From a virus (Duplodnaviria; Heunggongvirae; Uroviricota; Caudoviricetes): a stretch of 64,000 bases of DNA. This document shows positions 60,001-63,000 of this stretch, in pieces (the stretch's first letter is position 1; each line of letters opens with the position of its first letter). A program made the position numbers. The stretch is from the IMG/VR virus record IMGVR_UViG_2703718787_000017; one strand, 5' to 3'.

Positions 60001-63000
60001 ACAACGTCACCTCTGCTAATTACGCGAGCTGGATCTCCTGGCTCCATGCTGTCAATCCCGAAGGCTTCGGAAAACGCATTCATTGCCTTCTGGCGTTGAT
60101 CCTGCTTACGGCATTTATTCCATTTTTTCAGTAACAACAGCGATAGCCACCGCCCGGCGCAGAACATAATGTAAAAATAACCAAGAAGCGCCAGACCTGT
60201 GTTGAGGGCCGTATCGATCGTTATAGTGGTGTCTATGCTCACTTCACACCTCTCTGTTTGTTGATAAGTTCAATATCCTGCTGGCAACTGGCGCAAGTTC
60301 GGCATCCGCGAACAGCCTGGCGTCGCCGCTCATCTATCGGATCGCCACACTCGCAACAATGAGTAGCAGATGGGGCATTACTTTCGGATTTGTATTTTTG
60401 CAGGGAGAGATTGCGCTGCAATTCTTCGATTTCAGCGGCATTGTCGATGATATCTGCCATTTTCCTTTCCTTCAGGCATGAAAAAAGGAGCCGAAGCTCC
60501 TTTGGTATCAGAATTCAAATTGTCTTGCTCTTAGTTGCGCTAGCATACTTCTGGCCCTATGCACCATATAGTTGGCGGGATCAAGTTTTGCTGCTTCGCG
60601 GAGCAATGTGTCGCGAGTCCGGTTGGTTATATGACGAGTCTCGTAGGCCAGATCAAACAGTTTCCCGTAGTAATCAGAATTCAGTTCTCTCATGACGGGG
60701 TATAGCTGCTTACTGAGTTGTTGTGCTTTTTCCATCCAGAGTTGAACGTAGCAGAGCAGGATGATGTCTTCTGCTGTGAATTGCTGCTCAGTTTGTACTG
60801 GCTGAATGTTGCGAAGTTTCTTTTCGCACTCGATGAAGTATCGGCGTATCTGGCGGCCTTTTTCGTTACGTTCAACCATCGCAAGCTCTTTGGCTGTGTC
60901 GAGGGTGAGGTGGTAATCCTTGCGGCGGCGGCCTGGAGTTTTCGCCAAATTTGGCGAAAATAGAATGTAGTCTAAATTTTCTACGAATCCATACTCGTTT
61001 AGCTTGGCCCGTATCCAGTTAGAAAAATCTTTACCTACCTCTAAAAATCCATGCAAATCACGCGCGTTCACCAGAAGCGTAGGTTCATTTGAGATTGTAC
61101 CTTCAAACACAGGGATGAGTTGAGTGGTCATGATGACCTCCTTTGGCTTTTTTCGAGAAATGCCACCACAAAATGTGGTGCCGGGAGGCTCGAAACGGCC
61201 CAAAAGATACCGCGGACTTATTCCCCTTGCGGGTGTTGTATTCGTCGCCCTCCCGACATTGATCGGGGATGTGACCGCACACTGTGCTATCACTGAATAA
61301 CAGGCATAAAAAATCCAACACTGACGGGGTTGGTTTAATCCGCTTTTGGGAGGTTTTCGAGGCCTCGGCGCGGAGTATAGTCAGTATTGGACGCAGTCGT
61401 CAACCATCGCCGTTTCTTTGGCTGTGTCGAGGGTGAGGTGGTAATCCTTGCGGTTGTGACCGCCTCTACCAGATGTTTGCTTTCCCAAATTGGAAAGCAA
61501 AATATAGTCTTGATTTTCAATGAATTCGTATTCTGAAATGCGATTTGTAATCCATGCCGCAAACACCTTTTTCACGCCTAAAAAAGCATGCAGATCGCGG
61601 GCATTGCAGAGTAGGGCTGTTTCGTTGTCGATAGTGCCGTTGAATACGGGGATGAGTTGATTAGCCATAATTATGACTCCTGACGTTTTAGTATTGACTG
61701 CCACCTTAGTGGGGTGGCGGGCTTCAACTACCGCGTCAGACGGCGGAGCGTATTTCCCGAAAGGGTATTGTATTAGGCTCTCTCGACCCGCCATTGATAT
61801 GGCGATACCTGTAAACAGGCATAAAAAAGCCGCAAAGCTATCGGGTGCGGTTGACCGCTGACGTTGTAGTGCAGTCAGTATGCGATAGCTCTGGCAGATT
61901 TGTCAAATCGTGCAGTAACATCCTTTTCTTCCTTGCCATTTCTCAATGATGACAAAGGGTGGATTCGGATTGGTATTGGGACAAAAGTGAGACACACAAA
62001 GCTTTGCATCGGCTTACAAAGCTTTGCATGTTTTTCAATGTTGGGACGTGTGAGCGCAGAAATGACGGGCTATCTAATTGATTTTAAACGATACGTAACC
62101 AACTTTAAAATCTTTGCACGCCAGTTCGCAGGTTTTACAGCCAGTACAGCGGCTGGAATCGATAAAAAATCCATATTGTGTGGTCATGGGCTACTCCTTA
62201 AACCTTTTCGATCTGGACAAGATTGCTGTGCGACGGGTTTCCCTTTGCCAGCGGTGAAGGGCGGTGAGAGGTCAGAATATTGATACTGCCGCCGTGATCG
62301 ACCCGGTCACCAAACATATCCGCTTTAAGCCACGCACCTTGCCCGATGGCGGTAACGCCAGGCAGAATACGCGGAGTCACTTTTGCGGCAATCAGCATTT
62401 CTCCATTATTGTTAAATACCCGCACGGTATCGCCATGACGGATACCGCGTGCCTGAGCATCAATGGGGTTGATCCACACCTCTTGTGGGCAGGCCTGCTG
62501 TAACACATCAATATTGCCGTAGCTGGAGTGGGTACGCGCTTTGTAGTGGAAGCCCGTTAACTGCAGTGGATAGGTTTTCCGCAGGGGATCGTCCCAGCCA
62601 TCAAAACCTGGGGTATACGCAGGAAGGGGATGAATAATTTCATCTTTTTTCAATTCCCAGGTATCTGCAATCTTCGCCAGTCGTTCAGAATAAATTTCGA
62701 TTTTCCCCGAAGGTGTTTTCAACGGGTTTGCCTGTGGATCTTCACGGAATGCGCGGAAAGCGACGTAGTGTTCTTCCGGGCATTTTTTCTTAAAGATCCC
62801 GGTCGTTTTCATCTCCTCGTAGTCGGGCATCTCAGGGTTACGTTCCTTCGTTTTCGCATGGAGATATTTGATCCATTCATGCTGACTGCGACCTTCAGTA
62901 AAGGTTTGATAAACGTCTGGTCCTAAGCGTTTGGCGACTTCACTCAGCATCCAGTAGATGGGTTTGCGTTCAAATTTTGCTGAGGTTGCGGGTTGGGCGA

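Follow-up and report, generated by a model that had tools for sequence, protein, structure and literature searches.

The right-hand end of IMG/VR virus record IMGVR_UViG_2703718787_000017, a 64,000-nucleotide stretch of Caudoviricetes DNA (the whole of which is referred to here as the window), raises the question of what two short palindromes are doing just inside the end of a prophage. An initial annotation, made from the sequence, had placed a prophage/host junction within a ynfG/dmsB-like gene and had attributed the palindromes to a dimeric DNA-binding protein, naming the integrase (Int), the excisionase (Xis) and a regulator of the adjacent antirepressor promoter as candidates. The window end is the attR of a POCJ13-like Shiga toxin (Stx) prophage, inserted into ynfG by a P22-family tyrosine integrase. 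The palindromes are part of a direct repeat lying in a P22-type attachment-site arm, and it is judged probable (roughly 0.6) that the TTnCA units of this part of the arm form a phased Xis-binding array like the X1-X1.5-X2 sites of phage lambda.

Exact copies of the palindrome CAAAGCTTTG occur twice in the 64 kb, at 61997-62006 and 62017-62026, with a centre-to-centre distance of 20 bp and at 77-106 bp from the att core, and the earlier description of two perfect 10-bp palindromes spaced two helical turns apart is therefore accurate. Only 0.09 copies would be expected per window, and none of 100 shuffles contained at least two. The palindromes are part of a 14-bp direct repeat, ACAAAGCTTTGCAT, present in two copies with a 20-bp period on the plus strand; the copy at 61996-62009 holds the first palindrome together with a TTGCA at 62004-62008, and the copy at 62016-62029 holds the second together with a TTGCA at 62024-62028. 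They are perfect in the window because TTGCA is followed there by AAGC. The equivalent palindromes of P22 are imperfect (CAAATCTTTG and CAAGGCTTTG), the epsilon34 pair reads CAAAGCTTTG and CAAGGCTTTG and is imperfect as well, and palindromy is not kept across the P22-type arm family; it is proposed that perfect palindromy is a lineage-specific accident of unit sequence. The idea of a dimeric protein sitting on the palindromes does not agree with this imperfection in P22 and epsilon34, nor with the family-wide signal, which is a head-to-tail periodicity of 10 bp. An Rfam match of the palindromes to mir-19 (26 bits, where the gathering score is 50; E = 0.16) was dismissed as a generic hairpin match.

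When searched sensitively against phage genomes, the 311 bp next to the core split into two independent homology blocks. Window positions 61971-62088, repeats included, are 82-85% identical over 118 bp to P22-like phages and correspond to P22 21163-21279, a segment flanked in that phage by the gtrA promoter and the attP core; this P22-homologous block ends 15 bp short of the core. A set of arms was assembled by scanning IMG/VR with the conserved block GGGACNTGTGAGCGC, which adjoins the repeats and does not select for them, and P22, epsilon34 and the window were added. The resulting 57 distinct P22-type arms align without any gap, and G(G/A)GAC(A/G) is fixed in them at columns 6-11, 17-22 and 71-76. 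These columns correspond to the plus-strand sequences GGGACA (P1, 61978-61983), GAGACA (P2, 61989-61994) and GGGACG (P3, 62043-62048) in the window, the last of which begins a conserved block, GGGACGTGTGAGCGC, that spans 62043-62057. Two more copies of GGGACA are found on the int-side arm, within the last codons of int. Because it is present on both arms and fixed in the 57 variants, GGGAC(A/G) fits integrase arm-type sites, and P1, P2 and P3 are probably such sites, in a layout that agrees with the P1, P2, P3 / P'1, P'2 arrangement reported for P22. The P arm of P22 attP, as reportedly described in Leong 1985, Smith-Mungo 1994 and Mattis 2008, has Int arm-type sites, a Xis site and an IHF site. 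A weak, putative IHF site can also be read in the window between P3 and the core, at 62070-62084 on the minus strand (AAATCAATTAGATAG, with one mismatch to WATCAANNNNTTR), beside an A/T tract.

The palindromes lie inside the interval between P2 and P3, which is always 48 nt long and whose sequences fall into 16 clusters at 80% identity. When the interval is compared with itself, identity reaches 0.56 at a lag of 10 and 0.50 at a lag of 20, while the remaining lags give 0.18-0.35; taken cluster by cluster, lag-10 identity is 0.47-0.63 in all 16. The informative columns are arranged at an exact period of 10, with A at columns 26, 36, 46 and 56 and T at columns 32, 42, 52 and 59-62. In the window, four head-to-tail units with exact 10-bp spacing occupy 62004-62038 on the plus strand, namely TTGCA (62004-62008), TTACA (62014-62018), TTGCA (62024-62028) and TTCAA (62034-62038), and these constitute the proposed Xis-binding array.

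We infer that Xis binds the periodic units and that integrase binds GGGAC(A/G). The array would then be the binding platform for the excisionase of the phage, a P22-Xis homologue with an HTH_17/MerR-like winged helix, of which several monomers would bind head-to-tail and bend the arm; the bent arm would help integrase to bridge arm and core during excision, as happens with lambda Xis at X1-X1.5-X2. The order toward the core would be P1 (61978), P2 (61989), the 48-bp interval, P3 (62043), a possible IHF site and the CTTTAAA crossover core (62103-62109).

Among the three binders named in the initial annotation, the excisionase is thus the best supported, by the phased repeats and by a P22-like Xis gene at the other junction. 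This gene was found in Escherichia coli S19-651, which carries a prophage that is colinear with the window at 99.9% identity by direct alignment. Its Xis open reading frame (ORF) overlaps the start of int, and the product shares 72% identity with P22 Xis and has a Pfam HTH_17 match of E = 7e-9. RefSeq labels the S19-651 xis as a partial helix-turn-helix pseudogene (L003 13542-13607, L003 being the S19-651 region); the full ORF of 116 codons is intact (13260-13607, minus strand). When a profile of these Xis proteins was compared with the PDB, the sole matches, both weak, were BldC (6amk, 6ama) and the protein deposited as Gp37 (4j2n), which is the Xis of mycobacteriophage Pukovnik. BldC forms head-to-tail multimers on DNA direct repeats and has strong structural similarity with Xis (PMC5859096), and the usual binding sites of recombination directionality factors (RDFs) are tandem repeats at a spacing of one turn (PMC7498355).

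Further pairs of Xis and arm were collected by tblastn of complete phage genomes and from six fetched regions. A P22-like Xis recognition helix (WIRTGRLQATRK) goes with TTTGCA-type units, and where Xis is divergent the units at this position differ, as in L011 (Xis 57% identical) and L102 (Xis 38% identical), in a comparison that covers few independent lineages and genes linked to their repeats. HK639 and ENT1 have GCAnTAAnGA units at this place, and APSE-2 has GTAT-type units. L073, in which an HK75-type Xis stands beside an L013-type arm, was considered as a counter-example and set aside as uninformative, HK75 showing that such phages keep a remnant P22-type arm. This remnant (GAGACACACAAGGCTTTGCACTGGATTGCAAGAC) lies on the P-arm side of the HK75 attP (L209), outside the phage's own arm of TGTGCC-type repeats, and is evidence for replacement of att modules through recombination within the arms.

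Several points weigh against assigning the array to Xis. The correspondence to the P22 Xis site, which is reported to have been footprinted, is one of position, and the co-change of Xis and repeats is confounded by physical linkage, xis being 1.5 kb away, as well as by the small number of lineages. The interval also has a real dyad symmetry at register i+j = 79, with a Watson-Crick fraction of 0.55 against a background of about 0.25, and there are a few apparently compensatory changes, such as those in column pair 25/54, which is C-G, T-A or G-C. The window phage and P22 both have a strong minus-strand hairpin (z = -5.0 and -4.3, respectively), and two public records annotate a predicted terminator on homologous repeats. 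Phased T-tracts could, moreover, act by curving the DNA intrinsically, or by way of Fis or another host protein.

The main rival explanation, which is rather unlikely, is that the palindromes pair in RNA as a terminator or RNase III target, a function that could coexist with Xis binding. In a terminator-like scan, a potential 17-pair hairpin formed from both palindromes and followed by CTCACTTTTG was found at 61992-62031 on the minus strand (-22.7 kcal/mol), in int-sense and ynfEFG-sense RNA; the homologous hairpin of P22 (-17.2 kcal/mol) is followed by CCAUUUUU, a better U-tract than that of the window. Such a hairpin could be an element of the tI/sib kind that lies downstream of int on the other side of attP, in which case it would be joined to int only while the phage is not integrated; in the prophage, it could be an insulator against ynfEFG read-through into the antirepressor operon. 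Its position across att from int mirrors that of lambda sib, the dyad register 79 is enriched across the family, and a near-invariant T-run at columns 59-62 gives plus-strand candidates with hairpin and T-run in 11 of the 16 clusters. A minus-strand hairpin with a U-run is present, however, in just 5 of 16. Essentially no int-sense hairpin is formed in six clusters (L016, L024, L034, L041, L046 and L050; z of at least 0.2 or within 1.4 of the shuffle mean), four of which lack one on either strand, whereas the 10-bp periodicity is kept in all 16. The int-sense strand of the window phage folds better than the opposite strand, owing to G-U pairs, but this asymmetry is absent family-wide (0.70 against 0.67 of positions paired), and the U-tract of the window (CUCACUUUUG) is weak and offset and barely passes the terminator scan. 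The annotated terminators, on epsilon34 (L005 2025-2051) and phage L (L128 721-769), are themselves predictions, the former with the remark "CHECK IT - possible ERROR in LOCATION". Side-peaks of the dyad signal at registers 69, 89 and 99 show that the periodic TT..A pattern by itself accounts for much of the symmetry. The hairpin possibly has a secondary function in a P22-like sub-lineage. A combined proposal, in which the palindrome dyad is a functional RNA hairpin within the Xis array that terminates or destabilises int transcripts in the free phage, in the manner of sib/tI, and shields the antirepressor operon from ynfEFGH read-through in the prophage, is quite unlikely; if it were true, one 40-bp element would serve both the recombination machinery and transcription control, and shielding of the antirepressor would also shield induction.

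The remaining alternatives keep the DNA as the target and change the partner. That the T-rich phased units act without Xis, by intrinsic curvature or through a host architectural protein (Fis/IHF) that bends the P arm, is very unlikely: TT(T) tracts phased at 10 bp are the classic mark of curved DNA, and the Fis and IHF sites of lambda sit at comparable positions, but between lineages with different Xis proteins all the units change in sequence together while host factors are constant, and the CA(T/A) conserved behind each T-tract points to recognition of specific bases. P22 recombination is also said, in Cho et al. 1999, to proceed without an IHF requirement, which counts against this explanation. 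It is highly improbable that the repeats are themselves integrase arm-type sites. They are direct repeats located inside an att arm, and the octamer CTTTGCAT is also found on the int side (L003 ~12224-12231), but this copy falls within the last int codons (DAKKA) and is missing from P22 and epsilon34; a search of the attL side for the 14-mer, with 3 mismatches allowed, gave nothing relevant near attL. The flanking GGGAC(A/G), unlike the repeat, is present on both arms and invariant in the 57 variants, in which the interval varies, and fits the integrase far better than the palindromes for which this role had been suggested. It is equally improbable that the palindromes serve a dimeric regulator of the antirepressor promoter as its operator, or that they are CII/C1 activator sites (TTGC-N6-TTGC). 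The palindromes are perfect in the window phage, and P22 and epsilon34 have a perfect TTGC-N6-TTGC at the repeats, for which the epsilon34 record gives "putative CII-binding site"; the window motif, however, is TTGC-N6-TTAC (62003-62016), no -10 element stands at the required distance, no promoter was found there by the promoter scan, and palindromy is not conserved as it should be in an operator. The promoter concerned, a sigma-70-like TTGACA-18-CATACT of the antirepressor operon at 61877-61906 on the minus strand, is outside the att module, about 90 bp from the palindromes. Window positions 61816-61915, containing the antirepressor leader and promoter, match Stx phages of the 933W/VT2-Sakai type. 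The homology with VT2-Sakai runs through the ant leader as far as the -35 hexamer, beyond which VT2-Sakai has its own arm repeats (TTGGGGCA, four times) and no CAAAGCTTTG, and P22 has the repeats beside gtrABC, without ant. Because the ant leader occurs in VT2-Sakai without the repeats, the palindromes belong to the int/xis/att module and not to the antirepressor operon, and the earlier suggestion of a regulator of that promoter can be put aside.

The junction to which the proposed Xis array belongs was located by a megablast search of 5,426 complete E. coli genomes with a 1.2-kb query across the site. Host ynfG identity starts at window position 62103 (query position 704), and 5,326 of the genomes match solely from this position onward, that is, over the 5' end of ynfG and ynfF; in a further 79 the match runs through the junction, so that these genomes, among them O104:H4 outbreak strains and several Shiga toxin-producing E. 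coli strains, have a prophage of this kind in ynfG. The start of host homology at 62103 in 5,326 genomes bears out the initial annotation in that the divergence is a prophage/host junction inside ynfG and not allelic variation. Alignment with an uninterrupted ynfG, which that annotation had proposed as a check, was carried out as a three-way comparison of intact ynfG (L001; ccaagatCTTTAAAatctttgc, in longer form ...ccaagatCTTTAAAatctttgcacgcc), the window junction (gtaaccaaCTTTAAAatctttgc, in longer form ...cgtaaccaaCTTTAAAatctttgcacgcc) and the opposite junction in S19-651 (L003; ccaagatCTTTAAAgttgttgc, in longer form ccaagatCTTTAAAgttgttgctcacc). From these three sequences the common core is CTTTAAA, 7 bp at 62103-62109, which is the same in attB, attL and this attR, with phage-specific DNA up to 62102 on one side and host-specific DNA from 62110 on the other. 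The core had been placed at 62108-62112, which overlaps its host-side edge and is right to within a few bases, but host identity really begins at 62103. The reconstructed attP contains a perfect 14-bp palindrome, CAACTTTAAAGTTG.

On the minus strand, the truncated ynfG is an ORF of 62187..62074 that encodes MTTQYGFFIDSSRCTGCKTCELACKDFK followed by VGYVSFKIN and a stop codon, with ynfF upstream on the same strand. As judged from the ORF, matches to Pfam Fer4 (4Fe-4S) and comparison with intact ynfG, it consists of 28 native codons (62187..62104) and 9 phage-coded codons, and the stop lies in the P arm. Integration therefore leaves a 37-amino-acid YnfG stub at attR (62074-62187). On the attL side (L003 11625-12179, minus strand), an in-frame GTG from the phage arm gives MVSNN followed by FKDLGPEV..., without the first Cys cluster. 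The target gene is not restored by this phage, unlike the targets of its tRNA-targeting relatives.

The identity of the prophage follows from its toxin gene and its relatives. An ORF at 20064-21020 on the plus strand matches Pfam RIP with E = 6e-38, and because it is the Shiga toxin A subunit, the prophage is Stx-converting. The window end is 99.7% identical to that of the Shigella Stx1 phage POCJ13. Window position 1 equals L003 13642, which puts the attL core about 1.48 kb to the left of the window and gives a prophage of about 63.6 kb. A match of "two pieces, 1,729 bp" in S19-651 had hinted at an insertion; this was rejected upon direct alignment, the extra piece being a paralogous ant leader. 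The integrase is absent from the 64-kb window and had been presumed to lie at the other end, as it does in S19-651, about 1.5 kb to the left of window position 1. There, a 387-amino-acid tyrosine integrase ORF adjoins attL (Pfam Phage_integrase, E = 1.5e-45). Its product is 69.5% identical to P22 Int overall, with 75% in the N-terminal arm-binding part, 60% in the core-binding part and 73% in the catalytic part, a pattern that fits a kept arm and a changed core.

On the phage side of the arm, there is a sharp mosaic boundary at 61906-61971, where homology to Stx2 phages of the 933W/VT2-Sakai type stops at the -35 of the ant promoter and P22-type arm homology begins about 65 bp further on. The antirepressor genes are in tandem (ant, 60508..61131; a short antA/B, 61381..61668), and the 5' leaders of both match Rfam sRNA-Xcc1 (RF02221), at 61172-61257 and 61708-61792 on the minus strand; the scores are 74.5 and 53.0 bits, and the gathering score of the family is 53. 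A sigma-70-like promoter lies upstream of each leader (61906..61877 and 61403..61374). The sRNA-Xcc1 family has been described as an integron sRNA, and in an APSE phage paper it was found upstream of a gene with an ORF6N domain; the match looks like a leader element tied to antirepressor-type genes. A hairpin with a T-run (CCGCACCCGATAGCTTTGCGG-CTTTTTTAT) also separates the distal ant promoter from the sRNA-Xcc1-like leader, at about 61822-61850 on the minus strand; it is kept in VT2-Sakai and may act as an attenuator or mark where a short transcript ends.

These results have little importance beyond annotation. They fix the exact crossover core, CTTTAAA, and the arm anatomy for ynfG-integrating Stx1 phages of the POCJ13 type, which helps in typing the insertion sites of Stx prophages and in the design of excision assays. 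They also show a P22 int/xis/att module whose target has changed from tRNA genes to a protein-coding gene, with its arm architecture intact and the core-binding domain of its integrase the most diverged. The family-wide 10-bp periodicity offers a simple signature for locating Xis platforms in P22-type attachment sites.

The prophage type, the ynfG integration site and the att architecture are already known. It has been published that POCJ13, the S. sonnei 75/02 Stx phage and the RM10410 (E. coli) Stx1a prophage integrate in ynfG (PMC5447701; PMC10562709), and the window, which shows no material difference from these, is another copy of that prophage type. When compared with lambda sib/tI, the hairpin is likewise across att from int, such that integration separates the two, but it lies inside the arm, whereas the lambda element lies beyond it; it is, in addition, not conserved in the family, and no evidence of RNase III processing accompanies it. 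The proposed Xis array resembles lambda X1-X1.5-X2 in having two direct repeats of 13-14 bp at a 20-bp period, in having a weaker site in the middle, and in its location in the P arm between the arm-type sites and the core. The lambda sites are bound head-to-tail by a small winged-helix RDF (PMC7498355), and the same binding is proposed for the window array. The two differ in that there is no sequence similarity, that P22-type Xis is longer (116 amino acids) and of the HTH_17 family, and that the window array has four phased units where lambda has three. With P22 attP, the window shares the spacing of P1, P2, the 48-bp interval and P3, together with homologous Int and Xis proteins and an xis that overlaps the start of int. 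Its core, however, is a 7-bp match in the protein-coding ynfG, whereas that of P22 is at the 3' end of a tRNA gene (thrW), and the ynfG phage inactivates its target gene instead of restoring it. The cargo beside the arm is the antirepressor operon in the window and gtrABC in P22, and a few differing unit bases give the window its two perfect palindromes where P22 has ACAAATCTTTGCAT and GCAAGGCTTTGCAT.

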